64,000 nt of DNA from positions 6,253-70,252 of the forward strand of contig JAKSTW010000004.1 of assembly GCA_024402405.1 (NCBI GenBank). The letters are read 5' to 3'. This DNA comes from Spirochaetia bacterium. GTDB taxonomy: Bacteria > Spirochaetota > Spirochaetia > CADAEX01. How positions within the stretch are numbered: position 1 is the stretch's first letter; each line of letters starts with the position of its first letter. Below are positions 3,595 through 52,047 of the stretch, in pieces. Under the pieces are notes generated by a model. It was not told where the DNA came from. It saw nothing but the letters and a program-made list of their open reading frames with translations, and did not search any database. A program made the translations under genes and the position numbers.

Positions 3595-4980
3595 TTATCT
3601 TCTTTTTTCAGAAAGCTTTCTGGTCAATATGAAGGCTGATGTTATGATAAGCATGGTGAATATGAAGGCGTCACGATGGGCATGCAAATATGCGCTGCTG
3701 TCTCCGGATGCCATATATACCTGTTCTCGTGCGGCTATTATGGCAGTACCTGTGGCTATGCCAAGACTCTGCCCGAAATTTCTAAGTGTGCCTATCATTG
3801 CAGAGGCTGTTCCTGCTGAACCCTCAGGGACTGAACATAGTATGCATGCATTGATGGCTGCTACGCTGAATCCGTTGCCTGTTCCTATGAGAAGCATGGC
3901 AATGGAAGCTGTCAGTTTTCCGTAATTTGCATCAGAAAGACATATGAGTATTATGCTGGCACATATTATTGCAAGACCGATGGATGCTGATTTTTTGGTG
4001 CCGAGCCTGTCAGACAATGTGCCGCCTACCGGTGAGAATATCATCATGGTGACAGGACTGAGGAGCATTATCATACCTGCTTCTGTAGCAGTGAGTCCCA
4101 GCACTTTTATCAGGAAGAATGGCATCAGATAGATCACTGACTGCTGTGTGAAATAAGAGCAGATGCACACTGCATTGGCATACGTAAAATCTTTTATCTT
4201 AAACAGTTTCAATGGAAGAAGATAAACCTGGGAATTGAGTTCTGTCCTGATGAACAAGACAAGGGATGCAGCTGCTATGACCATACATGAGAGAAATTTT
4301 ACTGAAAGTCCACCCCAGGAATTGCTGTTGTTCAGGGCTGTGATGAAAGTTCCTGTAAAGACAGCAAAAAATACAGTTCCCTTTGTATCTATTTTAACCT
4401 TTGTGCTTGTTTTGCTGTCAGCCGGAAGAACCAGCATTGCTGCTATGAAGCCTGCGATACAGAAAGGAATATTCACATAAAATATGGAATGCCATGAGAA
4501 GAAGTCGATGAGAAAGCCTCCGCAGGTAGGGCCGGCAGCCAGACCGATTGAGACAAACACTGAATTGATGCCTATAGCTTTGCCGCATTCTTCTCTGCCG
4601 AATGTTCTTTTCACTATGGCCTGTGTGATGGATACCAGTATGCTGTATCCCAGACCTTGAAGAGATCGGAACAGTATCAGAAGTCCAAGGTTCCGGGAAC
4701 ACAGAGGAGCCAGCCAGGAGACTGCACCGAACAATGCAAATCCGAACATGAACTGCTTCCTGTAACCAAGCATATCGCCAAGACGACCGAAAAACAGCAG
4801 GGTACAGCATGGAATCAGGTTATATAACAGAGACAGCCAGCTTACTGATGCCTGCGAAACGCCGAATTGGCTGGCGATTGTCGGCAATGCCAGATTCATG
4901 CTGTTTATAGAAAAACCTGCTATGAAATTAGCGGCGCCGACTACCCAGAATATAAGCCATTTGGAATTCTTTATTTCCAT
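3595..4980 (-). CDS. MFS transporter (DHA2-like, 14-TM)
   Basis: 461 aa, highly hydrophobic with repeated TM segments and an MFS motif GRLGDMLGYRK. Confidence 0.7.
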   Translation of the reverse strand: MEIKNSKWLIFWVVGAANFIAGFSINSMNLALPTIASQFGVSQASVSWLSLLYNLIPCCTLLFFGRLGDMLGYRKQFMFGFALFGAVSWLAPLCSRNLGLLILFRSLQGLGYSILVSITQAIVKRTFGREECGKAIGINSVFVSIGLAAGPTCGGFLIDFFSWHSIFYVNIPFCIAGFIAAMLVLPADSKTSTKVKIDTKGTVFFAVFTGTFITALNNSNSWGGLSVKFLSCMVIAAASLVLFIRTELNSQVYLLPLKLFKIKDFTYANAVCICSYFTQQSVIYLMPFFLIKVLGLTATEAGMIMLLSPVTMMIFSPVGGTLSDRLGTKKSASIGLAIICASIILICLSDANYGKLTASIAMLLIGTGNGFSVAAINACILCSVPEGSAGTASAMIGTLRNFGQSLGIATGTAIIAAREQVYMASGDSSAYLHAHRDAFIFTMLIITSAFILTRKLSEKRR

Positions 4981-12303: not shown

Positions 12304-12336
12304 TTGTATGTAATTTTTGTTTCACTAAAACAATAT

Positions 12337-12762
12337 ATGTATGGTATTGTGCCTGTTATAGCTACTATATATATGGTTGCTTTCGAAATTTATATTAAAT
12401 ATAATCATAAAGCTATGTGTAAATTCATTGGTATGGAATATTTTGCAGCTATAGCCATGGTTTCATTAAAAATGGAGGAAATTCCTTTAAAAATGTTAAA
12501 TGGGTATGGTATATCTGTAATGAAATCCTTTAAAGAGAATGATATAGAAGCGATAATTTTGTATTCAGAGAAATATATATCTAAATTAGTACGTGATTAT
12601 TCAGATTGTTTTGAATTGTCTAATGATGGAAAGTCTTTGAGAAAAATAGTTGATGATGATGTTCTTATTGAAAAGTTTTGGGCATATTTGTCTACTGATT
12701 TAATTCTTGCAATGATGAATACATTTAATAAGCAGCATAAAGTTATTAATGAAACCATTTAA
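12337..12762 (+). CDS. hypothetical small protein with hydrophobic N-terminus; first gene of the island operon
   Basis: The ORF-track start (12211) overlaps the upstream gene and its terminator. First in-frame ATG after the terminator is 12337 (MYGIVPVIATIYMVAFEIY...). Its 3' end overlaps the next gene by 14 nt, which suggests translational coupling. Confidence 0.35.
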   Translation: MYGIVPVIATIYMVAFEIYIKYNHKAMCKFIGMEYFAAIAMVSLKMEEIPLKMLNGYGISVMKSFKENDIEAIILYSEKYISKLVRDYSDCFELSNDGKSLRKIVDDDVLIEKFWAYLSTDLILAMMNTFNKQHKVINETI

Positions 12763-14488
12763 AATAAAAGATCCATTATATGGTTATATTGAAATAAAAG
12801 ATCCTGAAATTTGTGATATAATTAATTCGAGCCAATTTCACAGATTAAAACAAATAATTCAAACAAGCTATACATCTGTTTATCCATCAGCAACACACAA
12901 TAGGTTTATTCATTCTATTGGAGTTTATTATTTAGGTACTCTTGCTATTGAGTCATTAAAGATAGAATTAGAAAAATTAAATTGTTATAAAGAAGAAGAA
13001 TTAAAATCATATTATCAAATTTTTTTATTAGCCTGTTTGCTTCATGATGTGGGGCATTCTCCTTTTTCACATTCTGGAGAAAAATATTATATAAAAAAGA
13101 GAACAGAAAAGGGGATTCCTTGTATTTGGGAAAAACTTTTGGATGAATTAAAAGATGATGAATTTAATATCGATACAAGGGGAGAAATTCAAGGTGCAGA
13201 ACATGAAATAATGAGTTCCTTGTTAGCTATATCTCATTATCAAGAAATATTAAAAAAATATGATAAATCATTTTTTGTTAGGTGCATTATTGGTTTGAAA
13301 TATTCAAAAAATGATATTCGTAATTGTTTTATAGAACTGTTAAATTCAAATACAATTGATGTTGATAAATTGGATTATTTGCTTAGAGATAGTTTATATA
13401 CTGGATTTGCAACAGTTTCTATTGATTATAAGAGATTATTATCTTCTGTATGTATTATAACAGATAGAAATAATAAACCTAGTTTAGGTTTTACTAAAGC
13501 AGCATTAAGTACCCTTGAAAGTGTAATTTTAGCTCGCGATATGGAAAAGAAATGGATTCAAAATCATCCAGTAATTAAATATGAATCATTTCTTATTGAT
13601 CACATGATTTCAGCAGTAAATAAATATTATTCAGACTTGGGTATTGAAATTTTTAGCCTTGAAGCCCTAACTCCAGATGGAATTGCTTGTACGACAGGAA
13701 AATTTAAGACAAACAAATTGTCTGATACAGATATTGAAGTTATCAAGAAATGTAAACAAAATGAGCCATTAACTGAGACTGAAAAGATTGCTGAAAATAA
13801 TATTTTAAAAGAAATCATTGATGAAGAATGTTCAATTAAACTTTTATCTGATACAGATATAATAACAATTGCTAAAAACTGTATAAAAGACGATGAATGT
13901 GTAAAAGAATATTTTGATAGAAGCATACGAAAAAAAGCTTTATGGAAATCAGAAGCAGAGTATCTATTATACTTTAAATGTGGCATTATGAGTGAAAAAA
14001 CATTAGCTCAACTACAAGAAAAATTGTTTTCTATAGAAAATGAATTTAACACATTACAAAGTCCATTTATTAATAATAATTTGTTAGAGTATTTTAAAAA
14101 GGAATTGGAAAAAAATAATAAGCTTGTTTTTCTTAGGGAAGATGAAAAAAAGAAACGGGCTGACGAAATTAATAAAAAAATTCAATTAATACAATTTTTA
14201 AAAGAATACTCGAGGGATTGTAATGTTGATTTTAATTTTGCAATTATTTCTAGTGGGCAATTTAATACAGGATTTACCGAGATTGAATTTAAAAATATCC
14301 AAATTCGATTTGATGATGAACATATTGAACCACTTGAAAAAGTTGTACAATTGCTTGATTCAGAAAAGAAAAAGAATAAGTTCTTTTATTTATATGTAAA
14401 TTGTGCTGATATAAAAGGTAATAAAATTGACTTGAATAATTTTTTGACTGAGTTAAATGATTTTTGTGTGAGAAATCTGCTAGATTAA
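12749..14488 (+). CDS. SAMHD1/dGTPase-family HD-domain dNTP triphosphohydrolase with a roughly 300-aa C-terminal extension
   Basis: Motifs NRFIHSIGV, LLHDVGHSPFSH and DVDKLDYLLRD match the Dgt/SAMHD1 signature. C-terminal half is K/E-rich with an internal repeat (LSDTDIEVIKKCK / LSDTDIITIAKNCIK). Confidence 0.7.
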   Translation: MKPFKIKDPLYGYIEIKDPEICDIINSSQFHRLKQIIQTSYTSVYPSATHNRFIHSIGVYYLGTLAIESLKIELEKLNCYKEEELKSYYQIFLLACLLHDVGHSPFSHSGEKYYIKKRTEKGIPCIWEKLLDELKDDEFNIDTRGEIQGAEHEIMSSLLAISHYQEILKKYDKSFFVRCIIGLKYSKNDIRNCFIELLNSNTIDVDKLDYLLRDSLYTGFATVSIDYKRLLSSVCIITDRNNKPSLGFTKAALSTLESVILARDMEKKWIQNHPVIKYESFLIDHMISAVNKYYSDLGIEIFSLEALTPDGIACTTGKFKTNKLSDTDIEVIKKCKQNEPLTETEKIAENNILKEIIDEECSIKLLSDTDIITIAKNCIKDDECVKEYFDRSIRKKALWKSEAEYLLYFKCGIMSEKTLAQLQEKLFSIENEFNTLQSPFINNNLLEYFKKELEKNNKLVFLREDEKKKRADEINKKIQLIQFLKEYSRDCNVDFNFAIISSGQFNTGFTEIEFKNIQIRFDDEHIEPLEKVVQLLDSEKKKNKFFYLYVNCADIKGNKIDLNNFLTELNDFCVRNLLD

Positions 14489-14511
14489 ATTGGATTCAAT
14501 AGGGAGAAATT

Positions 14512-15234
14512 ATGCCAGCTGATATGAGACAATTGATAAATTGCCTTTCTGAAATGAAAAAAATATATCTGAATAATCCAACGGAAGCAGTGCGTGGGTC
14601 TAGTTTTATTTATAAATTGCATGAATATTGTGTAATGCAATTATATTCTGCAATAGATAATGCAAAAGATAAAGTGCAAATGATAAGGTTAAAAGATATG
14701 GCACAGCCTAGTGGTAAGCCACATTATCCTAGAACTTTAATTGAGCCTAATAAATATCAGCTTTTGCAGGAAGTAACATTATTTGGATCACATAAGAATA
14801 AGGATGAGGATATAGCTTTAATTCATTATGCAAATGGTCCTCAAATTGCTATTGGAATTAGAAGTCAGATGTCCTCTGTTGGAAAAAATATTGAGAATTA
14901 CTATGAGGGTATTATTGGTGAATGTATTTCACTCCATGATCGGTTTCCAATGGCAACTCTTGGATATGTCTATTTGTTGCCTAAAAATCCAATCAAACCT
15001 GGCCTGGCAGAAGAAATAGATTTAGTTCGAGCAGAAACACTGTTCAAAAAAATAATTGGTAGATTGGATTGGCATTCACCTAATGATAAATATGAACATT
15101 TTGCTTTCTTAAAAGTTGATTTTAAGCAAGATCCTCCTGCAATTATCCCTTCTGACCCAGCACTTAGTATTGAGACTTTTTTTGACCGGCTTATTGCAAC
15201 CCATAATGACAGAAATTTATATAATCAGCTTTGA
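14512..15234 (+). CDS. hypothetical protein (240 aa), third gene of the island operon; possible nuclease or effector
   Basis: Begins 23 nt after the HD gene. No recognisable motif. AT-rich codon usage matches the island. Confidence 0.4.
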   Translation: MPADMRQLINCLSEMKKIYLNNPTEAVRGSSFIYKLHEYCVMQLYSAIDNAKDKVQMIRLKDMAQPSGKPHYPRTLIEPNKYQLLQEVTLFGSHKNKDEDIALIHYANGPQIAIGIRSQMSSVGKNIENYYEGIIGECISLHDRFPMATLGYVYLLPKNPIKPGLAEEIDLVRAETLFKKIIGRLDWHSPNDKYEHFAFLKVDFKQDPPAIIPSDPALSIETFFDRLIATHNDRNLYNQL

Positions 15235-15242
15235 CAGAGTAA

Positions 15243-16853
15243 TTATAATATTTTCCGTCTTCTTTTGGGAATGCGCCAATTCCTTAGATTCTCAATTGAA
15301 TTTCTTATCTTGTCGATATTTTCATCTGATAAACCATATATTTCTTGCAGAACTATTTTATCACCTAATTTATAAGTAGCATCTATCCCATTTTCCAATA
15401 AACATTGATTAAGTTGATTATAAACCTTGGCAATTATATTATTTGGAATATCTTTTAATATTTTAATTTTGTCAATTTCTCCAGGAATTAAAACAAGGGT
15501 ACCTCCACCTAAAGAATGTACTAGTGTTTCAATTTGTAATAATGTTAAACTATTATACCATCTACAAATAATATTTTCTTTTGATATGCTATTATCTGTA
15601 ATAATTCCACTGAGCAGACTATTTGATACTAAAAATTTTGCTGAATTGCTTATGAGCCTGGGGATGTCTCCAAATACAGTTAATATTAAATCTGGTATTT
15701 CGATATTAGGGGTTATATACCATGGTGAACGTGAATTACATTTATATCCCTTATTAATTTCCATTTTTTCACCCTCTTTAATATATTGTTTCGTTCCTTC
15801 AGTCAGTAGCCTTGGATAAAAAAGAAAACTTTGGGGAATTATATTGGCGTTATCTACACCAATATGTGGATAAGAATTTATTTCCTTTGAATTTAATATG
15901 CTTGGAAGTAAATTTTGCGAAGAAATTTTATATTCTTGAATGGTTGTTATTGTAGGATGAAAATATTTTTTATTTCCACATACATAACCAATTTTAAATT
16001 TACATTCATTTTTTAATAAGTGGATTTCTTGATTGTTCTCTAAGCCTTGTATTAAATTTTGTGTATCTTCTGATAAGATTTTCTGTTCGAAAGGTTTTTC
16101 CATTTTTAATATCTCTGTTATTTTAATTGAAGCACTAATCATAGAAATATTATTGAACAAATCGCTGATATTGTTATAAATATTATAGTTAACAGAATTG
16201 CATTTTGCTCCTTTCTTATCTGCAAGAAATATTATTGTTTCTACATCAACTTCTGGAAAAAAATCATCATATAGCCGACAGATTGTTAATGATCCAAAAT
16301 TAACAGACAAATATTGCCAAAGGGGGAATGCATATCTTACATATGTCATTTCATAAGGCAAAACAAAGCCAAGTTTGCCATTTGTAGCTAACATCTCGCT
16401 TGCATGAACTACAAAAGGCATCCACAGGCTACCATTGCATGGGATATGGAGTTTATATTTTTTCATTATATTAAATATTTTTTTTTGATTATCATTGGTA
16501 AGATTTTTTAAACTTATGTATGGGGGATTTCCTATTATTGCATTTGGTTTTTTTTCTGGCCAGAAATCCAGATAATCAGAAAGGATGCCATGAATAATAT
16601 TATTTTTTGCCAAATATGAATTATATGGCTCAGATTGTAATTCAATACCTAATATTTGAGGGGAGGTGTTTCCAAAATTATTATAATATTTTATGGAGGC
16701 ATTAAGAAAACTACCGTCGCCAAATGATGGTTCTAATAATAATTCATTGCCAGTTTTTATTGCCCATCTTGCAATGTAATCAGCAATAGAAGAACATGTA
16801 TAAAAAGAGCCAGTTGCTTTTTTTGTTGATAGATTATTTTTTTTCATGCTCAT
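15243..16853 (-). CDS. N6-adenine DNA methyltransferase, gamma class (Type II/IIG-like) with C-terminal target-recognition region
   Basis: 536 aa. Motif X GSFYTC, motif I LEPSFGDGSFL, motif IV NPPY (IIGNPPYIS). Confidence 0.75.
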   Translation of the reverse strand: MSMKKNNLSTKKATGSFYTCSSIADYIARWAIKTGNELLLEPSFGDGSFLNASIKYYNNFGNTSPQILGIELQSEPYNSYLAKNNIIHGILSDYLDFWPEKKPNAIIGNPPYISLKNLTNDNQKKIFNIMKKYKLHIPCNGSLWMPFVVHASEMLATNGKLGFVLPYEMTYVRYAFPLWQYLSVNFGSLTICRLYDDFFPEVDVETIIFLADKKGAKCNSVNYNIYNNISDLFNNISMISASIKITEILKMEKPFEQKILSEDTQNLIQGLENNQEIHLLKNECKFKIGYVCGNKKYFHPTITTIQEYKISSQNLLPSILNSKEINSYPHIGVDNANIIPQSFLFYPRLLTEGTKQYIKEGEKMEINKGYKCNSRSPWYITPNIEIPDLILTVFGDIPRLISNSAKFLVSNSLLSGIITDNSISKENIICRWYNSLTLLQIETLVHSLGGGTLVLIPGEIDKIKILKDIPNNIIAKVYNQLNQCLLENGIDATYKLGDKIVLQEIYGLSDENIDKIRNSIENLRNWRIPKRRRKIL

Positions 16854-17178
16854 TATCTCGCTTTATATTGGTAGAAATAAAGACCTCTAAGAGTAATTTT
16901 ATAGTTTCCCTTTGCTCACCAGATAGATCATCGCAATTAATAATTATTCCATTAGCCTTTAAATATGAAGTTTTTATATCTGATAATCCAAGCAGATAAT
17001 CTGATGAAATATTAAAGTATTTGCAGATTAAAATTAAAATTTCTTGATTGGGAAATCGACTGTCAGATTCATATTGGGATATTGTTGCACAAGAAATTCC
17101 CAATATTTTGCCTAAATCAGTTTGCGACAGATTTGCTGTTTTCCTTAGAATTTTTAATCTTTCACCAAATATTTTCAT
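16834..17178 (-). CDS. XRE-family HTH transcriptional regulator (possible R-M controller)
   Basis: 114 aa. HTH QTDLGKILGISCATISQYESDSRFPN. Overlaps the methyltransferase start by 20 nt, so they are co-transcribed. Confidence 0.65.
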   Translation of the reverse strand: MKIFGERLKILRKTANLSQTDLGKILGISCATISQYESDSRFPNQEILILICKYFNISSDYLLGLSDIKTSYLKANGIIINCDDLSGEQRETIKLLLEVFISTNIKRDNEHEKK

Positions 17179-17270
17179 TTTAAATAAGAATAATACATAA
17201 TTTAACGAAATGCAATATTAATTTTGCATAATGAAAATAGATATGATTATTTGTTAACGACAAATATAAT

Positions 17271-17984
17271 TTAACTGTTAAATGTTTTTCTTGCCTCATG
17301 CATCCATTTTATCAGCATTATGACTGAGTTCATCAGATATATGCACCACATTATGAGGATTGCCGGGCTGCCTGTTCCATGCAGGCAGGAGATCGTCCAC
17401 ATTATGATTGACACTGTGTTTACCATCAGCCAGAGGATCCATGTCTGGGCATATCTTTTTATGGTGACGATCATGGCAATTATGCTGACCGCATTGGTGA
17501 ATGAATCAAGCAGCGGGAGCTTTCCTCCCAAGTATCTCAGCCAGAATGCATAAGACGCTGTTGCTGCTGCCACGGTAATGCCCAGCAGTGCGGTCTGCCT
17601 GCGGTTCATGCTCTTTTTTTTCACCTCATGAGTGCCCTGATCCATGTTCCTGCTCCAGACATATATTCCGTAGAATTCCATTGGGACAAAATACAGCAGG
17701 TTCAGCATCACTTCTCCATAGAAACAGGCTTTCAGGGCAATGAGTGCATACAGTACACGGCCTGTTCCTCCGATGATGTATGCGCTGAGCTTTCCCTTGC
17801 CTGTGAGCACGCTGGCGGAAATACCGCATATTGCAGCTGTTATGGCTGTCAGACTGTCTTTGTATAAACTGGCTATGATACCGACTGCTGTGGATGTGAG
17901 CAGGAGCCACAGTATCTCCCATCTGTGCCATCCGAGAAATTCATTCTTTATTATGTCATAAATTCTGCTGCTGGAATGCCTCAT
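17271..17984 (-). CDS. pnuC: nicotinamide riboside transporter PnuC family
   Basis: 237 aa, about 7 TM, N-terminal WHRWEILWLL-type region typical of PnuC. Confidence 0.7.
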   Translation of the reverse strand: MRHSSSRIYDIIKNEFLGWHRWEILWLLLTSTAVGIIASLYKDSLTAITAAICGISASVLTGKGKLSAYIIGGTGRVLYALIALKACFYGEVMLNLLYFVPMEFYGIYVWSRNMDQGTHEVKKKSMNRRQTALLGITVAAATASYAFWLRYLGGKLPLLDSFTNAVSIIAMIVTIKRYAQTWILWLMVNTVSIIMWTISCLHGTGSPAILIMWCIYLMNSVIMLIKWMHEARKTFNS

Positions 17985-19941: not shown

Positions 19942-21813
19942 ATGGCATCACATCAGTTTCAGACAGAAGTATCTCAGCTTCTGCATCTGATCATTCATTC
20001 ACTTTATTCCAATAAGGAAATTTTCCTTAGGGAACTTATCTCCAATGCCTCTGATGCATTGGACAAACTTAAATATCTTTCACTTACTGATGATAAATAT
20101 AAAAGTTTGGATCAGGAATTCAGGATCGATATTAAATTTGATGAGGAGGCTCACACTCTTACGATCGCTGATACCGGTATCGGTATGAACGATGAGGAGC
20201 TGGCCCAGAACCTTGGAACCATAGCGAAGTCAGGAACCAAGAGCTTTTTGGCTAATCTCTCAGGAGATGCCAAAAAGGATTCCAACCTTATCGGACAGTT
20301 CGGAGTAGGCTTCTACTCAGCATATATGGTGGCTGATAAAATTGAGGTTCTTACCAAGAAACCGGGAGATTCCCAGGGCTGGAAGTGGACCAGTGACGGC
20401 AAGGGCGAGTTCGACATATCTCCTGCTGAGAAAGAGAATTACGGAACATCAATCACTCTTTATCTGAATGATGAGGGCAAGGAATACACTACCAGATGGC
20501 AGCTGGAGCTTCTTATAAAGAAATATTCAGACCATATCTCTTTCCCTATCTATCTGGAATATATGTCCGTGAGATATGAAGGAGACGAGAAGGATCCGAA
20601 GGAGATCAAAGAGAAGAAGATCGAGAAGATCAATTCCGGTTCAGCATTGTGGAAAAGATCCAAGTCTGAGCTTACAGATGCAGATTACAATGAGTTTTAC
20701 AAGACCATCTCCCATGATACTGAGGATCCTCTGTTCTATGTGCACACAAAGGCTGAGGGAACACTGGAATATACGACACTGTTCTTTATTCCTAAGAAGG
20801 CACCTTTTGATATGCTCCATGCTGATTACAAACCGGGCGTGAAGCTTTATGTCTCCAGAGTCTTCATAACCGATGATGACCAGGAGCTTATGCCTGTATA
20901 CCTGAGATTCCTCCGGGGTGTCATTGATTCTGAGGATCTGCCGCTGAACGTAAGCCGTGAGATCCTCCAGCAGAATAAGATCATGTCTTCTATCAGAAAT
21001 GCTTCTGTAAAGAAAGTGCTGGCCGAGCTGAAATCTCTCAGTGAGAGCAACAAAGAGAAATATAATGAGTTCATCAAACAGTACAATGTAGTTCTGAAAG
21101 AGGGAATCTGGTCTGACTGGGCTAACCGTGACACACTGCTGGATCTGGTGAGATTCAAGTCGACCGTTGCAGACGGATATACAAGCTTTGCTGATTATGT
21201 GGGACGTATGAAGGAAGGGCAGAAAGCCATCTATTACATTACCGGCGGAAATGAGCAGAGCCTGAAGGCTTCTCCGCTTATCGAGGCATATAAGGCAAAA
21301 GGATATGAAGTTCTGGTAATGGATGACCCTAGGATTGACGAGATAGTTCTTTCCGCACTTGGAAAATACAAGGATTATGACCTGAAGTCAGTGAACAAGT
21401 CAGGTTCTGCCGAGGAACTGAAGAGTGCTGAGGATGAGGCAAAGGCTGATGCACTCAAACCTGTGCTGGAAAAAATAAAGAATGTTCTTGGTGATAAGAT
21501 CAAGAAGGCAGTTGTGTCCAGCAGGCTCAGCGATTCACCTTCCTGTATAGTTGCAGATGAGAATGATCCTACCATGGAGATGCAGGAAATACTCCGTTCC
21601 ATCGGACAGCAGAAAGATGATTGTGCACCTGTTCTGGAGATCAATCCTGATCATGTCATTGTGAAGAGACTGGCTGATACCGATGATAAGGAGACAGTTG
21701 AGGATATCAGCTGGCTGCTTCTGGATGAGGCAAAGCTGGCTGAGGGTGCAAAACTGGATGACCCTGCCGGATTTATCAGAAGGATCAACAAACTGGCTGA
21801 AAAAGCCCTGTGA
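19942..21813 (+). CDS. htpG: molecular chaperone HtpG (Hsp90)
   Basis: 623 aa. N-terminal GHKL ATPase motifs (ELISNASDALDK, IGQFGVGFYS) and full-length Hsp90 architecture. Confidence 0.92.
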   Translation: MASHQFQTEVSQLLHLIIHSLYSNKEIFLRELISNASDALDKLKYLSLTDDKYKSLDQEFRIDIKFDEEAHTLTIADTGIGMNDEELAQNLGTIAKSGTKSFLANLSGDAKKDSNLIGQFGVGFYSAYMVADKIEVLTKKPGDSQGWKWTSDGKGEFDISPAEKENYGTSITLYLNDEGKEYTTRWQLELLIKKYSDHISFPIYLEYMSVRYEGDEKDPKEIKEKKIEKINSGSALWKRSKSELTDADYNEFYKTISHDTEDPLFYVHTKAEGTLEYTTLFFIPKKAPFDMLHADYKPGVKLYVSRVFITDDDQELMPVYLRFLRGVIDSEDLPLNVSREILQQNKIMSSIRNASVKKVLAELKSLSESNKEKYNEFIKQYNVVLKEGIWSDWANRDTLLDLVRFKSTVADGYTSFADYVGRMKEGQKAIYYITGGNEQSLKASPLIEAYKAKGYEVLVMDDPRIDEIVLSALGKYKDYDLKSVNKSGSAEELKSAEDEAKADALKPVLEKIKNVLGDKIKKAVVSSRLSDSPSCIVADENDPTMEMQEILRSIGQQKDDCAPVLEINPDHVIVKRLADTDDKETVEDISWLLLDEAKLAEGAKLDDPAGFIRRINKLAEKAL

Positions 21814-21840
21814 TATATCTTTAGTTGTAAAAACAACAGA

Positions 21841-21880
21841 GCCCTTTGCTGAAAGATTCAGCAGGGGGCTTTTTTATTTA
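21841..21880 (+). terminator. rho-independent terminator after htpG
   Basis: GCCCTTTGCTGAA...TTCAGCAGGGGGC hairpin followed by TTTTTTATTT. Confidence 0.5.
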
Positions 21881-21886
21881 TGCCTG
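21865..21886 (+). repeat. 22-bp direct repeat, copy 1 (GGGGCTTTTTTATTTATGCCTG)
   Basis: Exact 22-nt identity with 23292-23313. Confidence 0.7.
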
Positions 21887-21959
21887 CAATCAGTACACTT
21901 GGAAACAGCAATTTCTGCATTTTATATTCTATTTATTAGTGGAAAGTTGATGATGGTAT

Positions 21960-22325
21960 TTATTGTTTAATTCTGTCAAAAGCAGTATCGACTGCTGTTT
22001 TTAAATTGGCTATTATTTCTTGTCGAACCTGTTCTATATTTGCATTTGGAGAATATTCCTGAGAAAATAGCTCTATCGAGTGTATATTCAGCGCATATGC
22101 TATACGCTCCAACATTCTTGCAGAAGGAAATTTCTTACCCTGCTCTATGAGCGATATGTAGTTCGGAGCTGCTCCAACTTTCTCAGCTAGATCTGCCTGT
22201 GAAATTCCCATTCCTTTTCTGAGAGCTTTCATGTTCATGGAAAGGTGGTGCTGGAGTTCTGTCATATAACCTCTGGATATAATTTTAAAAATTATACACA
22301 TCATGGTTATAGATTGACAAAGCAC
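21960..22325 (-). CDS. XRE-family HTH transcriptional regulator
   Basis: HTH MGISQADLAEKVGAAPNYISLIEQGKKFP. Confidence 0.65.
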   Translation of the reverse strand: MLCQSITMMCIIFKIISRGYMTELQHHLSMNMKALRKGMGISQADLAEKVGAAPNYISLIEQGKKFPSARMLERIAYALNIHSIELFSQEYSPNANIEQVRQEIIANLKTAVDTAFDRIKQ

Positions 22326-22379
22326 TAATAGAGATATTATAACTAATGGTAATACAAATGTTTTTGTTTGGAGTGAATT

Positions 22380-23252
22380 GTGAATAAAAAAATGAAAAAA
22401 TTTTTGTTTTTGTGTTTTGCAATTTGTATCGCTGTTTTATTAGTTAATTGCAGTGATGGGGGCAAAGGTGGCGATGTTGTAGGAGGCGATGATATCCCAA
22501 ATTATCTCTGCTTCACGGCTGATGCTGACAGAAGTTTGATTTCTGCTGAAGTTTTTAATGGATATGTAGATCCGTTGCCAGTACTTGAGTATTCCATAGA
22601 TGGAGTAAACTGGAGAACATTTATTATAGGTGGAACTAGGGTAAAACTCAACAAAGGTGATAAAGTATATTTAAAAGCAAAAGATAAAAATGAGTCATTC
22701 TCAGAGTATGGTGATTATATAAGATTTTGCATGGAAGGTAGTATAGTAGCCAGTGGCAACATAATGAGCCTGCTGGACAGCACCTGTCAGTCTGTAGAGA
22801 TCCCATGTGATTATTGCTTTAATAATTTATTTGATAGATGTATTAGTTTGACTATTGCATCTATATTATTGCCTGCGACAAAGCTGACCAAGGGGTGTTA
22901 TTCGGCTATGTTCAACGACTGCTATAATTTAAGAACTGCACCTGAGCTACCTGCTGTCATATTGGCTGAACAGTGTTATGAATGTATGTTTTTGCAATGT
23001 GAAAGTCTTGAAACTGCGCCTAAATTGCCAGCGACTACACTGGCTAAAGGATGCTATGAGGGTATGTTTCATGAGTGTAGCAAGCTTACTGCCGTAGAAG
23101 TTTCATTTACGGATTGGAATGAGACAGAATATGCTACTGATGGTTGGCTTGATGGTGTGTCTGCTGCTGGAACATTTGTCTGTCCTGCAGAACTTGATAC
23201 CAGTACAAAAGATACCAGCCATGTACCGGAAAACTGGGCTGTAAATCCATAA
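22380..23252 (+). CDS. BspA-type leucine-rich-repeat surface lipoprotein
   Basis: Signal peptide and lipobox (LLVNCSD). Tandem repeats of about 23 aa (KGCYSAMFNDCYNLRTAPELPA / EQCYECMFLQCESLETAPKLPA / KGCYEGMFHECSKLTAVEV) typical of BspA-like LRRs. Confidence 0.7.
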   Translation: MNKKMKKFLFLCFAICIAVLLVNCSDGGKGGDVVGGDDIPNYLCFTADADRSLISAEVFNGYVDPLPVLEYSIDGVNWRTFIIGGTRVKLNKGDKVYLKAKDKNESFSEYGDYIRFCMEGSIVASGNIMSLLDSTCQSVEIPCDYCFNNLFDRCISLTIASILLPATKLTKGCYSAMFNDCYNLRTAPELPAVILAEQCYECMFLQCESLETAPKLPATTLAKGCYEGMFHECSKLTAVEVSFTDWNETEYATDGWLDGVSAAGTFVCPAELDTSTKDTSHVPENWAVNP

Positions 23253-23291
23253 GCATAGTTGATTACTTATACTGCCTATCGGTATTATTTT

Positions 23292-23313
23292 GGGGCTTTT
23301 TTATTTATGCCTG
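23292..23313 (+). repeat. 22-bp direct repeat, copy 2 (GGGGCTTTTTTATTTATGCCTG)
   Basis: Exact 22-nt identity with 21865-21886. Lacks the upstream hairpin arm present at copy 1. Confidence 0.7.
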
Positions 23314-23339
23314 TCCTCATCTTCTGACATTATTTTCCC

Positions 23340-23825
23340 TCAATCCTCAGCGCGGAGAAGGTCTATGAGCTTTCCTTTGGCAATATAGTCTTCACTCCAG
23401 GATGACATATCCAGCCTGATTGCTGCCATGTGTCCTGGTTTCATGATCGTTCCCATGCCCAGAAGACGTCCTGCCAGGCTTTCCAGCGCAGGATTGTGGG
23501 CCACTATCATGACTGTCTGTGCAGTTCCTGCGTTCTTTGCAAGAAATTCCATTATATCTTCTGCTCCGGCGGAGTACAGTTCCTCGCAGTTTCTGAGTTT
23601 CCCGGCATAACCTGAATTCTTTATGAAAATAGCCGCAGTTTCCTGTGCTCTGACTGCAGTGGATGCAAAGATGACCTGTGGCAGCTCATATCCTATCTCT
23701 TTGAAGAGTCTGGCAGTATCTGCTGCCCGTTTCCTGCCTGTGTCTGTCAGAATCCTGGTGAAATCTGACATCATTGATGGTTCAGCCTTTTCATGTCTGA
23801 ACAGATAAAGCGTAAGCATGATCAT
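23340..23825 (-). CDS. histidine-phosphatase-superfamily protein, SixA-like phosphohistidine phosphatase
   Basis: 161 aa. N-terminal LYLFRHEKA (RHG-like catalytic His) and a second His region VAHNPALESLAG. Confidence 0.55.
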   Translation of the reverse strand: MIMLTLYLFRHEKAEPSMMSDFTRILTDTGRKRAADTARLFKEIGYELPQVIFASTAVRAQETAAIFIKNSGYAGKLRNCEELYSAGAEDIMEFLAKNAGTAQTVMIVAHNPALESLAGRLLGMGTIMKPGHMAAIRLDMSSWSEDYIAKGKLIDLLRAED

Positions 23826-23828
23826 ATC

Positions 23829-24785
23829 CTATGAATTTCTTCCTGTTTTCCAGTGCCAGACTATTCTGCCTGTGCCGCCTGGGAAAGGGGAGAGTTTGTT
23901 GAAATCCGGGTTCCATTCTTCTGTGATCTCGTCTTCCTGTATGAACCCGTCCTCGATTCCATATTCATCCAGGTAAGAATAGACCATGTCCATTTCTGAC
24001 CTGTCCAGGATCCGCTGTGGGAAATCATCATATTCAGGAGATGCCGCTTTTGGTGAATACTGGAACATCACGGAAAGCAGTGCCTTGTCTTTCAGATTCT
24101 CGCTGTACCATTTCAGTACGCGTTCTGTCATTTCAAGGTACCCGGGAATCACCAGATGCCGTATTATGGTGCCGCTGATGATCTTGTCGTCTTTGAATAC
24201 AAGCGGCTTGGACTCTGCCATCTTGATGACTGACTCTTTTGCTCTTTCCGGGTAATCAGACGCATTGAAGAATACAGCTGCGAAATGATGGTTCAGTGTC
24301 TTCAGATCCGGGAGATATACATCAGTGAATGTGTTTACGATGTCCAGCATCTCCGCAGTCTCATATCCTGATGAATTCCACAGTACCGGTATTTTCAGTC
24401 CTTTTTCCCTGGCTTCAGCTATTCCTAAAGCTATGGACGGAATGAACTGAGTTCCGGTGACCAGATTTATATTCTCTGCCCCTGCATTCTGGAGATCCAT
24501 ACAGATGCCGGCAAACTCGGAGACAGACACCTCTTTCCCTATTCCTCCGCGGCTTATCTGATGGTTCTGACAGAACTTGCACTGCAGTGTGCATCCTGTG
24601 AAAAATATAGTGCCTGAGCCATTTTTGCCTGTGATCGGCGGTTCCTCACCTTTGTGCAGAAGTGCGCAGGCAATGCGTATCTGGTCGGATTCACGGCAGA
24701 ATCCGCAGGCTGAAGTCCTGTCTGTGCCGCAGCCACGTCCGCACAGATGGCATTTTCTGTATATGTCCAGTATATTGTCATTCAT
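23829..24785 (-). CDS. radical SAM enzyme (PflX/AmmeMemoRadiSam-type activase-like)
   Basis: CTLQCKFC (Cx3Cx2C) radical SAM motif. N-terminal Cys-rich CHLCGRGCG...CGFC. ORF-track N-terminus (to 24899) overlaps tRNA-Leu, so start reset to the ATG at 24785 (MNDNILDIY...). Confidence 0.65.
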   Translation of the reverse strand: MNDNILDIYRKCHLCGRGCGTDRTSACGFCRESDQIRIACALLHKGEEPPITGKNGSGTIFFTGCTLQCKFCQNHQISRGGIGKEVSVSEFAGICMDLQNAGAENINLVTGTQFIPSIALGIAEAREKGLKIPVLWNSSGYETAEMLDIVNTFTDVYLPDLKTLNHHFAAVFFNASDYPERAKESVIKMAESKPLVFKDDKIISGTIIRHLVIPGYLEMTERVLKWYSENLKDKALLSVMFQYSPKAASPEYDDFPQRILDRSEMDMVYSYLDEYGIEDGFIQEDEITEEWNPDFNKLSPFPGGTGRIVWHWKTGRNS

Positions 24786-24843
24786 ATTGAAGGTATTATT
24801 GATTGACAAAAAATTAAAGTCAATGTACTTTGATAACATACAT

Positions 24844-24928
24844 GCCGGTGTGGCGAAATTGGTAGACGCAGCAGACTCAAAATCTGCCGGTGGCAACACT
24901 GTATCGGTTCGAGTCCGATCACCGGTAA
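24844..24928 (+). tRNA. tRNA-Leu (anticodon CAA)
   Basis: Long variable arm, anticodon loop cTCAAaa, GGTTCGAGTCC T-arm. Confidence 0.85.
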
Positions 24929-25007
24929 CTTATATTTCCCTTTCCTATCCCTTTATTTTTTTTTCATATTATATTATATTAAAATCAGCAAATACTAAGG
25001 AGCTATT

Positions 25008-49381: not shown

Positions 49382-50566
49382 TCACCATCTAAAATTCATA
49401 ACTGGCGGATATGCTTTCTTTACAGATAAGAACAGAAAAAATCCGCCTGCGGCCCCAACTGCGTTCTGCAGTATATTCATCGGAATTTCTGAAATTGCGG
49501 CTCCTGGTCCCACGATGAAATATCCTGTAAAAAAATATCCTGCTACCATTATAACAGCTCCTGCAAAGAAAACAAGAAATTTTGATAAAAATAGTGAAAT
49601 TTTATTCATGTTCCTGTTGAAGATATTGAATGTGAACCCGATTGCAAATCCCTGCAGTCCATGTATCAGCAGTGAGAATAATGCCCACTGGGAATATCCG
49701 CTGAGTATGTCTGCGATTGCTGTCCCTAATCCTCCTGCTATAAAACCGGCGGCAGGACCGAATGTGATGGCTGAGAAAAATATTGCCATATCACCGAAAT
49801 TCAGGTATCCCCTTGTGGGTCCTATTGGAATTCGTATGAGTATGGTCATGACCACGACTATTGCTGTGAGTATGGCAGAAGCTGCGATTCTGAACGAAAA
49901 GGTCTTCATTGCTGCATTGCCTGTTTTTCTTCCGGTCTGATTTCTGATGCCTCGTGTCTCCAGTGCCATTGCCAGAGTCGGAATATTTTTTATTGCCTGT
50001 ATCAGTACTGAGGCCAGGATCGGAAGGGTGCTTCTGAACCTGCCGATGAAATTCCATCTGCCTGGATCAGCGCAGCCCTCTGTCTTTCTCATTTTATGTG
50101 CATTTTCTGTATTTCTGTATATCCTGATAAGGTAGGGAATATATCTGGATGCAATCGATATTGTAAGTGCAAATTTGAACGGTAGGCCGAAAAAACGTAA
50201 TGTCTGGATGAAGACATCCTGCGATGTTGTTCTGAAATAAAGATAAAAGAGGGCAGTGATCCCGAAAAACCGTATTATGATCCTTGATGTCTCATACAGA
50301 CCTGTCTGTGTCAGCCATATGAAATTACCGGTCTGTATTACCGGTGTTCCGCTGCGGAAAAAAAGCGGGGTAAGGACAGCTGTCAGAATCACCAGTGGAA
50401 GTATTGCTCTGAATATCTTCAGGAAATCTTTCCAGCCGCATATGCTGATGCCTGCCGGTAACAGAGGCAGAAACAGCAGCAGATAGTGAAGCGGGGAAAA
50501 AAAAAAAAAAAAAAGAACAGAGTACAATATGAGAAAAATAAATTTAAGTCTCGGATCTGTTCTCAA
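49382..50566 (-). CDS. ECF transporter transmembrane protein: EcfT(CbiQ)-like N-terminal part fused in-frame to an S-component-like C-terminal part
   Basis: N-terminal about 225 aa has EcfT features (ASRYIP..., ALETRGI). C-terminal about 170 aa is a 5-6-TM S-component-like module (MKTFSFRIAASAILTAIVVV...). Apparent TTG start. Contains an 18-nt T-run at 50497-50514. Confidence 0.55.
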   Translation of the reverse strand: MRTDPRLKFIFLILYSVLFFFFFSPLHYLLLFLPLLPAGISICGWKDFLKIFRAILPLVILTAVLTPLFFRSGTPVIQTGNFIWLTQTGLYETSRIIIRFFGITALFYLYFRTTSQDVFIQTLRFFGLPFKFALTISIASRYIPYLIRIYRNTENAHKMRKTEGCADPGRWNFIGRFRSTLPILASVLIQAIKNIPTLAMALETRGIRNQTGRKTGNAAMKTFSFRIAASAILTAIVVVMTILIRIPIGPTRGYLNFGDMAIFFSAITFGPAAGFIAGGLGTAIADILSGYSQWALFSLLIHGLQGFAIGFTFNIFNRNMNKISLFLSKFLVFFAGAVIMVAGYFFTGYFIVGPGAAISEIPMNILQNAVGAAGGFFLFLSVKKAYPPVMNFRW

Positions 50567-52047
50567 AGGATCTCTCCTGGCAGAAAAGAATAATTTAATA
50601 TATTTTCCAGTTTGTCACCCGGTTCCTCAAATTTACCGTTGTTCATGAAATATATGGAATCTGCATTGGATACAGCCAGTTTGAAGTCATGTGTTATTAT
50701 CATGATGGCCGGATCTTTGTCGGAATTTCTGAACTGCCTGATGATGTTTGTGTATTCTGTAAAGGAAATCCCTGAATCTGCCTCATCTATGATTATTATA
50801 TCTTTGTTCAGCAAGTAATAGATCGCTGCCTGCAGTTTCTTCTTCTGACCATAACTCATAAGTACCGGTGATGCGGTCACAGATTCTATGCCGAAAATTT
50901 TTACAGCATCGGATATCTGTTCCGGATCAGTGCTTTTATTTCTGAGCTTCAGGCCATATTCCAGTTCCTCCTGTACAGTGGGAAGAAAAAGCTGGTAATC
51001 CGGATTCTGGAAGAGATATGATACATTTCTGTTCAGTTTGCCCGGATCTGTTTCTTTTCCCATAAAGCTTATTTTGCCTGCTGATGGGATCAGAAGTCCT
51101 GCTATGAGTTTTGATAATGTGGATTTTCCGCATCCGTTGGTACCTATTACCGCAGTAGTTTTTCCTCTGTGCAGAGAAAAATCCTCTATTTCAATGCTGA
51201 ATTTGGAATCTGGATAGGCGAATTTTATATTCTGAAGTCTGATGACAGGATCGCATTCCGGTTTCTTCAGGAATTTATCTCGCAATACCGATATCTCAGG
51301 CATGTGAAGATTTATGAACAGTCCAAGTTCCGATGCTCTTTCATATAGTTTATTGTCAGCCGGCTGAAAATGTTCTATGGTGCCGTGGCTGAATATAAAA
51401 AAATCAGAGGCAAATTCCCTATATATATCCAGCATTTTAGATGTCAGTATAAGAACAGTTTTTCCTGAGCTTTTAAGTGTCTCCAGAATTTCTTTTCTGG
51501 CATAAATATCTATTTCTTCCAGTGTCTCATCCAGTATCCACAGCTGAGGATCCACTGCATGCAATACGGCCAGCATAAGTCGGCGTTTCTGTCCGCCTGA
51601 AAGGCTGCTTGGAACCTGTTCCCTGAGTTCTTCTATATGCATCTTCGATAATGCATTCTGTACTTTCGTGCTGATTTCTTCTGGCGGGAGTTCCATATTC
51701 TCCAGCGGAAAACTGATTTCTTTTTCTGCAGTAGAGCATATTATCTGTTCATCCGGATTCTGAAATACGATTCCGACTTTGTTCAGCATATCTGAGCTGT
51801 GTAATTCTGTGAGTTCTGCATCATCCAGTCTGATGCTGCCTGAGAGTGTGCCTCCGGTATATGACGGAACCAGGGATGTTATTATTCTGGATAATGTTGT
51901 TTTACCGCTTCCGGGAGGAGCCAGAAAAACAGACACAGTGCCTTTCTGCAGGGAAAAAGAGAGAGAATCAAACAGTAACGGGCTTTCCAGTCCCTGATAA
52001 GATGGATATCTGAATGACAGATTATTTACTGAAAAATATACCGGCAT
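50563..52047 (-). CDS. ECF/CbiO-type ABC ATPase, duplicated (A-A' fusion)
   Basis: Two ABC domains. Walker A APPGSGKTT and GTNGCGKST. Signatures LSGGQKRRL and MSYGQKKKL. Stop overlaps the next gene's start. Confidence 0.75.
   Translation of the reverse strand: MPVYFSVNNLSFRYPSYQGLESPLLFDSLSFSLQKGTVSVFLAPPGSGKTTLSRIITSLVPSYTGGTLSGSIRLDDAELTELHSSDMLNKVGIVFQNPDEQIICSTAEKEISFPLENMELPPEEISTKVQNALSKMHIEELREQVPSSLSGGQKRRLMLAVLHAVDPQLWILDETLEEIDIYARKEILETLKSSGKTVLILTSKMLDIYREFASDFFIFSHGTIEHFQPADNKLYERASELGLFINLHMPEISVLRDKFLKKPECDPVIRLQNIKFAYPDSKFSIEIEDFSLHRGKTTAVIGTNGCGKSTLSKLIAGLLIPSAGKISFMGKETDPGKLNRNVSYLFQNPDYQLFLPTVQEELEYGLKLRNKSTDPEQISDAVKIFGIESVTASPVLMSYGQKKKLQAAIYYLLNKDIIIIDEADSGISFTEYTNIIRQFRNSDKDPAIMIITHDFKLAVSNADSIYFMNNGKFEEPGDKLENILNYSFLPGEIL

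Follow-up and report, generated by a model that had tools for sequence, protein, structure and literature searches.

A 22-bp direct repeat bounds a small regulator-lipoprotein islet behind the htpG terminator of an uncultured rumen spirochaete

Introduction

How did a 1.4-kb segment with two genes come to lie between two identical 22-bp sequences, one of which belongs to a transcription terminator? The question is raised by a stretch of 64,000 nucleotides (hereafter the window) from the genome of an uncultured rumen Spirochaetia bacterium (assembly GCA_024402405.1, contig JAKSTW010000004.1, positions 6,253 to 70,252), in which genes for an XRE-type regulator and for a leucine-rich repeat (LRR) lipoprotein stand between htpG and a gene for a SixA-like phosphatase. 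An earlier note, drawn up from the letters of the window alone, had explained this arrangement by target duplication or by recombination at the htpG terminator. The best reading of the locus is that the segment 21887-23291, together with one copy of the repeat, is a small, horizontally acquired and non-autonomous islet, occupying a slot that varies among strains, with the htpG terminator on one side and the SixA-like gene on the other. As to its origin, we tentatively favour the possibility that the repeat pair is a scar of the attL/attR type, left when an element, since decayed or else mobilised in trans, integrated by recombination into the terminator tail, with loss of adjacent DNA.

Results

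An exact 22-bp repeat with one copy in the htpG terminator

The 22-mer GGGGCTTTTTTATTTATGCCTG was found twice on the + strand of the window, by exact as well as by mismatch search and at the positions that the earlier note had given (Table 1); no third copy was found in the 64 kb with up to 3 mismatches allowed. It is the longest exact direct repeat of the window, the runners-up having 19 and 17 nt. Identity between the two copies stops sharply on both sides of the 22 nt, and the repeat period is 1427 bp, that is, the segment 21887-23291 plus one copy. Conspecific populations were sampled in runs SRR17543905, SRR17543914, SRR26714002 and ERR6929713 and in the European Nucleotide Archive (ENA) assembly ERZ27247192. 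A contig of the latter (L085), 99.1% identical to the window over 8.4 kb, spans both islet junctions, and two Logan contigs of SRR17543905 (L001 and L002) carry one junction each. Since the arrangement is reproduced in two independent assemblies, it is not an assembly artefact. Taken together, chance identity and faulty assembly are hardly credible explanations: part of the 22-mer is T-rich and of low complexity, but 0.00 copies were expected from 100 shuffles, in agreement with the earlier claim of an identity beyond chance in 64 kb, the structure recurs in the ENA assembly and in Logan contigs of another run, 22 nt is below the k-mers of assemblers, and no contig breaks at the repeat in the samples of L085, L001 and L002.

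The two copies differ in their structural context. Copy 1 is part of the htpG terminator, the hairpin of which begins 24 nt past the htpG stop codon and folds on the + strand with -28.3 kcal/mol (z -3.8). The terminator is bidirectional, since the same hairpin forms on the minus strand, where it is followed by the U-rich stretch UGUUGUUUUU. In contrast, the 87 nt around copy 2 are structured no better than shuffles (z +0.2 and +0.6 on the two strands). As a Rho-independent terminator, copy 2 offers a T-run alone (minimum free energy -9.9 kcal/mol, z +0.21) and the terminator scan was blank; having no hairpin on either strand, it cannot serve as an intrinsic terminator. The folding thus bears out the description of copy 1 as the 3' half of the htpG terminator and of copy 2 as lacking the upstream arm. 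When the single-copy site is reconstructed, it folds as a terminator (-29.5 kcal/mol, z -4.2). Copy 1 is identical in L085, and the T-run of copy 2 has six T in the window and five in L085.

The repeat could also be a local duplication that gave a functional second terminator or regulatory element, either in an old islet or in a larger ancestor holding XRE, LRR and the gene X described below. Copy 2 does stand where a terminator is expected (39 nt past the LRR stop and 26 nt past the SixA stop), and the 22-mer occurs at two unrelated metagenome terminators. We nevertheless regard such a duplication as quite improbable in view of the missing hairpin, of the strain-variable T-run and of the foreign composition of the insert.

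Exact scans for the 22-mer gave 0 matches in 185,579 species genomes (one genome each; 596 Gb), 0 in viral contigs and 2 in JGI metagenome contigs. Both matches are ordinary terminators of unrelated organisms, which follow an L25 gene and a tRNA, respectively; we treat them as chance or convergence, unconnected with the htpG locus, in a sequence of terminator-like type. On these counts the 22-mer was rejected as a widespread motif, and the earlier caveat that it might be a ubiquitous terminator sequence falls away. A search of Rfam for structured RNA returned nothing below E = 0.6, all scores being far under the gathering scores. A perfect inverted repeat of 15 nt, with one arm in htpG (21515-21529) and the other in the LRR gene (22765-22779), was set aside as being at chance level (E 0.08).

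A low-GC insert without a recombinase

The DNA between the copies differs in composition from its surroundings. Its G+C content (GC) is 36.9%, and GC at third codon positions (GC3) is 30% in the LRR gene and 33% in the XRE gene, against 44% (GC3 49%) for htpG, 48% (GC3 48%) for the SixA-like gene and 42.9% GC for the whole window. In the two GTDB species that are nearest by HtpG, metagenome-assembled genomes from yak and goat forestomach (L003 and L004; 80% and 79% identity), htpG has a convergent 418-aa gene 13 nt behind it, with a radical-SAM gene beyond; neither XRE-LRR nor SixA is present after htpG in either of them. By composition and distribution the XRE-LRR segment is accessory DNA, probably acquired horizontally. 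Low GC, absence from the nearest species and the different locus of the homologous XRE block in relatives support the cassette gain proposed in the earlier note, without demonstrating its mechanism.

The islet codes for the XRE and LRR proteins and for nothing else. No transposase or integrase was found in it or among 30 open reading frames (ORFs) scanned across positions 117-53725, and the insert ends carry no terminal inverted repeats. These results bear on the target duplication that the earlier note had considered. A perfect direct repeat immediately bounding the insert is indeed what would remain after staggered cleavage by an enzyme supplied in trans, be it a DDE transposase or a casposase-like one. 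However, 22 bp is far above the 2-14 bp usual for insertion sequences and transposons, the duplication quoted for DDE integrative and mobilizable elements (IMEs) being 8 bp (PMC5704250), and neither the ends nor the ORFs point to a transposase. In addition, the XRE-lipoprotein module is not repeat-flanked elsewhere. We consider a transposase target duplication highly improbable.

Two other sources were tried and rejected. For an integron gene cassette, there is no attC-like fold after the LRR gene, no repeated cassette ends and no integrase in the 30 ORFs. For a phage or plasmid origin, there is no DNA similarity to phages, relatives of XRE, the LRR protein and gene X are absent from viral contigs, and gene X has no plasmid match.

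Another low-GC segment was observed in the window at 12306-17296 (5 kb, GC 27.9%), which is missing from the 99%-identical strain L085. It codes for an HD-domain protein of 579 aa, a 240-aa protein without assignment, an Eco57I-like N6 DNA methyltransferase of 536 aa and a second XRE protein of 114 aa. It lies directly after the T-run of a peptidyl-prolyl isomerase gene terminator, between convergent genes and with no long flanking repeat, and from its genes it looks like a restriction-modification or defence islet.

An alternative allele diverges inside copy 2

Read leftwards from window position 24792, contig L109 (Logan SRR17543914) keeps 99.5% identity as far as 23311 and diverges inside copy 2 (23311/23312), the final TG being the only part of the 22-mer in common. 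Further left comes an ORF in the orientation of SixA (MSEDEDRKQEIIGRWNQY...), here called gene X and no fewer than 74 codons long, which starts 10 nt after the SixA stop behind a GAGGG Shine-Dalgarno sequence and is translationally coupled to SixA. The junction of this allele (allele B) reads CTTGCTTTCTGTCCTCATC, and the L109-specific DNA (1454-1685) has a GC of 36.8%. No relatives of gene X were detected, and it has no Pfam match. In the window, the 5' end of gene X persists as a remnant ORF that stops after 9 codons. Two more samples gave conspecific contigs that end at 23313 (L111) and 23317 (L110), which is what an assembly graph does at a polymorphic branch. Three independent samples thus diverge or end 0-6 nt from the right end of copy 2. 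Because L109 diverges and L110 and L111 end there, copy 2 marks a recombination breakpoint, in a slot that varies among strains and takes two or more different foreign inserts.

Most likely gene X was intact in the ancestor of the present allele; it is less likely, in our view, that a native mini-ORF happened to be extended in frame to give gene X in L109. The retained 5' end of gene X implies that the present structure also needed the loss or replacement of neighbouring DNA, and the simple insertion between htpG and SixA pictured in the earlier note does not agree with the divergence of L109 at copy 2. A weak collinear similarity was seen between the 39-bp tail of the islet and gene X codons 8-20 of L109. 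Its score was reached by 9 of 2000 shuffles, for a region picked after inspection, and the whole-region search was not significant (18/300), so that homology of the tail to gene X is unproven.

The same junction can be read as the product of illegitimate or replicative repair. Foreign DNA would have replaced the body of gene X by template switch or break repair at the hairpin/T-run, 20-22 nt of terminator tail being copied again as a by-product, and the allele would then have spread by homologous recombination in the flanks. Such a repair accounts for the coincidence, within the shared CTG, of the right end of copy 2 with the L109 divergence and for the persisting stump of gene X; it agrees with two alternative low-GC foreign inserts in one slot, with the lack of a recombinase, of terminal inverted repeats and of any further 22-mer in the species genomes and viral contigs, and with the position of the island 12306-17296, also directly after a terminator T-run and without a long repeat. 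It may be that foreign DNA lands easily in the terminator tails that separate convergent genes here. On the other hand, neither novel joint (GCCTG/CAATC, TATTTT/GGGGC) shows microhomology, and a clean templated duplication of 22 nt, here around a 1.4-kb insert, is an unusual product of bacterial illegitimate recombination. On balance we rate this origin as somewhat unlikely.

Within the islet, L085 differs from the window at 6 of 1,449 nt, compared with 15 of 2,416 in the right flank. Divergence of the islet is like that of the flank, so the islet either predates the strain split or travelled with its flanks. The LRR gene of L085 carries a nonsense mutation (GAG to TAG at window position 22704, codon 109) and is called as two ORFs, which indicates that the gene is dispensable in at least one strain. 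In the sister species L086 (86% DNA identity in SixA), another + strand terminator ends 6 nt from the SixA stop, and the contig stops at that different terminator, 50 nt after SixA.

A dense patch of differences between the window and L085 was observed at 21812-21864, with 14 differences in 53 nt against about 0.8% elsewhere. The changes take in the htpG stop codon (TGA versus TAA), the loop of the hairpin and, within its stem, a compensating T/G indel pair, and they stop exactly at the first base of copy 1. The patch could be the edge of a recombination tract or reflect fast terminator evolution.

The XRE block is joined to other lipoprotein genes in relatives

Nine homologues of the XRE protein were found in rumen metagenome contigs, all 101 aa long and 64-73% identical. 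In 19 contigs the XRE gene lies in an island that reaches from an amino-acid-kinase gene to a tRNA-Arg/tRNA-Ser/tRNA-Ser cluster beside thioredoxin and that contains toxin-antitoxin genes too. There it is divergently paired with differing lipoprotein genes, which code either for proteins of 455-462 aa without known domain or for a 322-aa protein with Flg_new and FGE-sulfatase domains; all have a lipobox and a poly-Gly linker. The FGE-sulfatase domain type recalls the variable lipoproteins of diversity-generating retroelements, and no reverse transcriptase was seen near the FGE-sulfatase lipoprotein genes of the relatives.

DNA homology of the relatives to the window comprises only XRE and ~80-90 nt upstream of it (~22015-22347, roughly 72% identity), its limits being the XRE stop and a point ~33 nt short of the LRR start. 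Among the relatives (L090-L108), a 393-bp XRE-plus-operator block is shared with non-homologous DNA on either side, for example in the regions L090 4505-6306, L098 2569-3962 and L106 4514-6306. The matching tRNA locus of the window (tRNAs 1701-1975, kinase 2007-2693) has no island. From these comparisons, a conserved repressor-plus-operator unit is combined with different lipoprotein genes, at another chromosomal site in the present genome.

Short tRNA fragments were observed in the islands of the relatives. Both L098 (3972-3996; intact tRNA 4729-4753) and L099 (5923-5947) carry, 9 nt past the XRE stop, 25 bp that copy the tRNA-Ser(GCU) anticodon arm exactly. In L098 this copy is 757 bp from the intact tRNA and is followed by a degenerate tRNA 5' half. 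Inverted 18-20-bp fragments of the tRNA-Arg 3' end were found in L098 (4350-4367), L092 (1606-1625) and L093 (3557-3576). These 18-25-bp fragments look like scars of integrative elements, yet their geometry misfits one simple integration.

A more far-reaching reading, unlikely in our view, would see in these loci XRE-anchored, swappable lipoprotein modules of rumen spirochaetes that relocate by an undescribed recombinase, acting in trans at 20-25-bp structured-RNA segments. Each module would then consist of the ~390-bp repressor and operator block, joined to LRR, FGE-sulfatase/lectin-like or ~460-aa proteins, and the 3' arm of the window terminator and the tRNA-Ser anticodon arm by the XRE stop in L098 and L099 would be candidate crossovers.

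Genes of the islet and its flanks

The gene content claimed earlier (htpG, XRE, LRR lipoprotein and SixA-like) was recovered as such (Table 1). The XRE protein scores 43 bits against HTH_3, compared with a Pfam cut-off of 23. Its best NCBIfam likeness is to the RstR family repressor (1.6e-10, under the cut-off), and it is identical to an NCBI entry named 'helix-turn-helix transcriptional regulator [Spirochaetia bacterium]' (P0125). The spacer between copy 1 and its stop codon has no homology to the DNA downstream of XRE in related loci. In the control region shared with the LRR gene, the minus-strand promoter (TTGTCA-18-TATAAT) matches the consensus at 11/12 positions, and two boxes, CTAATAG (22325-22331) and CTAATGG (22343-22349), stand 18 nt apart. 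In 64 kb, 6.9 copies of the palindromic heptamer CTAWTAG are expected and just one is present, in the control region. About 80 nt upstream of XRE, both boxes included, are conserved in L090, L098 and L106. Because of this divergent and conserved repressor-operator architecture, we infer that the XRE protein binds the CTAWTAG boxes and represses both its own gene and that of the LRR lipoprotein.

Table 1. Features of the htpG-SixA locus (window positions).
Feature	Coordinates	Strand	Remarks
htpG, Hsp90 chaperone; left core flank	19942..21813	+	Pfam HSP90 9.7e-123; GC 44.3%
htpG terminator hairpin, intrinsic, bidirectional; also downstream of the minus-strand XRE gene	21838..21872		16-bp stem with 7 GC pairs, T-run
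Direct repeat copy 1; attL-like junction	21865..21886	+	3' hairpin arm, T-run and ATTTATGCCTG tail
AT-rich spacer, copy 1 to XRE stop codon; left end of islet	21887..21959		GC 30%
XRE/Cro-C1-type helix-turn-helix regulator, 101 aa	21960..22265	-	Pfam HTH_3 4.6e-11
Divergent control region, 114 bp	22266..22379		Back-to-back promoters, CTAWTAG-type boxes
LRR lipoprotein, BspA/LRR_5 family, 290 aa	22380..23252	+	Signal peptide, lipobox LLVNC, Gly-rich linker
39-bp tail, LRR stop to copy 2; right end of islet	23253..23291		GC 31%
Direct repeat copy 2, orphan without hairpin arm; inter-allele breakpoint, attR-like junction	23292..23313	+	Exact 22-mer
Gene X remnant	23301..23339	-	Shine-Dalgarno GAGGG, ATG 23330-23328, six codons MSEDED, then RHK and stop from copy 2
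SixA-like histidine phosphatase; right core flank	23340..23825	-	His_Phos_1 1.1e-7; GC 47.9%

The LRR lipoprotein is 290 aa long when started at GTG 22380 and would be 286 aa long from ATG 22392. Its lipoprotein signal, MNKKMKKFLFLCFAICIAVLLVN-C-SDGGKGG, was read from the sequence without a dedicated predictor, and most of the homologues in the alignment share the lipobox Cys and the Gly-rich linker. There are 5207 homologues, many of them annotated PF13306 or 'leucine-rich repeat protein'. Eleven that were aligned over the full length are 41-51% identical to the window protein, which is the shortest aligned member, with 3-4 repeats of 26 residues (LPATTLxxxCYxxMFxxCxxLxxAPx). PF13306 is matched by 10 of the 12 aligned sequences (best 1e-8), the window protein not being among them; it has no Pfam match of its own at E <= 0.01. 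Its AlphaFold (AF2) model has a pLDDT of 89.8, and comparison with solved structures (PDB) gave none significant, the top one being a Bacteroides ovatus LRR protein (E 0.13). The BspA-type assignment made earlier is therefore supported by homology, without a direct model match, and the protein is a probable adhesin or ligand-binding protein of the cell surface.

Of the flanking genes, htpG is named by NCBI as MCQ2603727.1, 'molecular chaperone HtpG [Spirochaetia bacterium]'. The phosphatase belongs to the His_Phos_1 superfamily; against TIGR00249 sixA (9.7e-16) it scores 58 bits, under the cut-off of 74.5, and 'SixA-like' is hence the best name. A search of 5.8 billion proteins returned 4 homologues, with 99%, 89%, 36% and 27% identity. 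Because of these few relatives, and because the nearest GTDB species carry the 418-aa, outer-membrane-like gene instead, the right flank of the islet seems itself to be lineage-specific, though its GC is core-like. Left without a hairpin terminator, the LRR and SixA-like genes would converge on the 87-nt region around copy 2, where read-through and antisense overlap would be expected.

Further along the window, tRNA-Leu(CAA) (24843-24929) overlaps the 5' extension of a radical-SAM ORF (23829-24899, 356 aa from GTG). The true start of this gene is probably downstream of the tRNA, since the call in L085 is for 318 aa. A homopolymeric run of 18 A (50497-50514), which could be a slippage-prone tract, lies near the junction of the minus-strand ORFs 49382-50566 and 50563-52047.

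Discussion

For the mechanism and the order of events at this locus, we infer the following. Circular incoming DNA would have recombined reciprocally with the tail of the htpG terminator, leaving the two 22-bp junction repeats. The geometry would be that of tyrosine- or serine-integrase elements, in which the target regains its 3' end from the att identity block. As the 22-mer restores the 3' arm and the T-run, htpG would keep its terminator, which would serve the minus-strand XRE gene too. The recombinase, which the islet does not encode, would either have been lost by decay, leaving a remnant like a cis-mobilizable element (CIME), or have acted in trans. Then, or simultaneously, a deletion ending exactly at the repeat would have brought the right junction against the 5' end of gene X. 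This model predicts an empty site of the form hairpin-22mer-TCCTCATC, with the sequence TTCAGCAGGGGGCTTTTTTATTTATGCCTGTCCTCATC, and a circular or attP junction of the form TATTATTTT-22mer-CAATCAG, with the sequence GGTATTATTTTGGGGCTTTTTTATTTATGCCTGCAATCAGTAC.

Several observations agree with such an integration. A copy within the hairpin and an orphan copy are expected if one is the native end of the target and the other is borne or made by the insert. The repeat length falls within the range of att identity blocks, which are repeats of ~8-60 bp, one of them keeping the target 3' end intact (PMC5704250). The divergence of L109 falls on the edge of the repeat, as a recombinase hot spot or an adjacent deletion would have it, and the three samples that diverge or end there mark the right end of copy 2 as a recombination hot spot. 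Moreover, the homologous XRE block of the relatives sits in a tRNA-linked island with 18-25-bp tRNA fragments.

Other results weigh against it. There is no cognate integrase in the 30 ORFs scanned across 117-53725, and the 22-mer is missing from the 185,579 species genomes and from viral contigs. It also lacks the dyad symmetry typical of recombinase core sites. No circular junction was met among the assembled contigs compared. A single-copy empty site, which the earlier note had named as the thing to look for in relatives, was not recovered from GTDB htpG relatives, SixA homologues with their cluster members or 12 contig look-ups: L085 has the islet, L003 and L004 have a different gene after htpG, and L109 has another insert. 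The reach of L109 is 232 nt beyond SixA, so that XRE-LRR could lie further left in that allele. The XRE-lipoprotein modules of the relatives have no flanking repeats (no shared word of at least 10 nt but one chance 10-mer), and there is thus no recurrent element made of an LRR cassette plus the 22-mer. As for the earlier suggestion that the same cassette without repeats in relatives would speak against it, the islet of L085 does have the repeats and the other modules do not. Finally, the stump of gene X needs an additional step that is not site-specific, which makes an illegitimate or replicative origin a serious competitor.

Among known systems, the islet is close in form to integrase elements that end in identity blocks of 8-60 bp, one of which preserves the target 3' end, and above all to CIMEs, which are decayed integrative and conjugative elements or IMEs that keep attL and attR without genes for integration or transfer and at the sites of which accretion has been documented (PMC5704250). 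Like CIMEs, it is small, free of a recombinase and bounded by direct repeats, it keeps the target 3' end functional and it occupies a multi-element site. Unlike them, its target is the tail of an intrinsic terminator and not the 3' end of a tRNA or protein gene, it measures just 1.4 kb, and no integrase-bearing relative, empty attB or tandem accretion was found for it. A close formal analogue is provided by the ssrA islands of Dehalococcoides (vcr-GI etc.), which are of low GC, break synteny, are bounded by the end of an RNA gene and a 20-bp direct repeat of that end, and are situated in a strain-variable region of high plasticity (PMC3146451). The islet shares with them the low GC, the bounding by an RNA-element end and a repeat, and the strain-variable slot. 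However, the Dehalococcoides islands usually carry DsiB, an integrase of the serine recombinase family, by attL, and their repeat recurs many times per genome (PMC3146451), whereas the islet has no integrase and a single repeat pair in the available sequence.

In its gene pair, the islet resembles the XRE-cargo pairs of prophages and islands (a cI/Cro- or RstR-like repressor plus a moron) by a small HTH_3 gene that is divergent from a surface lipoprotein gene, with palindromic boxes over the promoters. It differs from them in having neither phage genes nearby nor phage or viral similarity, and the relatives pair the XRE block with unrelated lipoproteins, as in a chromosomal locus for variable surface proteins. 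With BspA-type LRR proteins (PF13306) the lipoprotein shares the 26-residue repeats and its lipoprotein or secreted nature; it departs from them as the shortest aligned member, under every Pfam threshold and with no significant match among solved structures.

The islet is a small, repeat-bounded genomic islet, a known type, and a fairly ordinary scar of gene gain with which current understanding stands. The locus offers a natural polymorphism of three alleles (the XRE-LRR islet, gene X and a probable empty state in the sister species) with a breakpoint defined to the nucleotide. If the att-type origin is true, integration makes use of an intrinsic terminator tail as its site, and an integrase-less remnant of 1.4 kb can persist as a strain-variable unit that gives an uncultured rumen spirochaete a repressor-controlled, adhesin-like lipoprotein. 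The combination of one XRE/operator block with unrelated lipoproteins across strains may tell more about surface variation in spirochaetes than the repeat itself.

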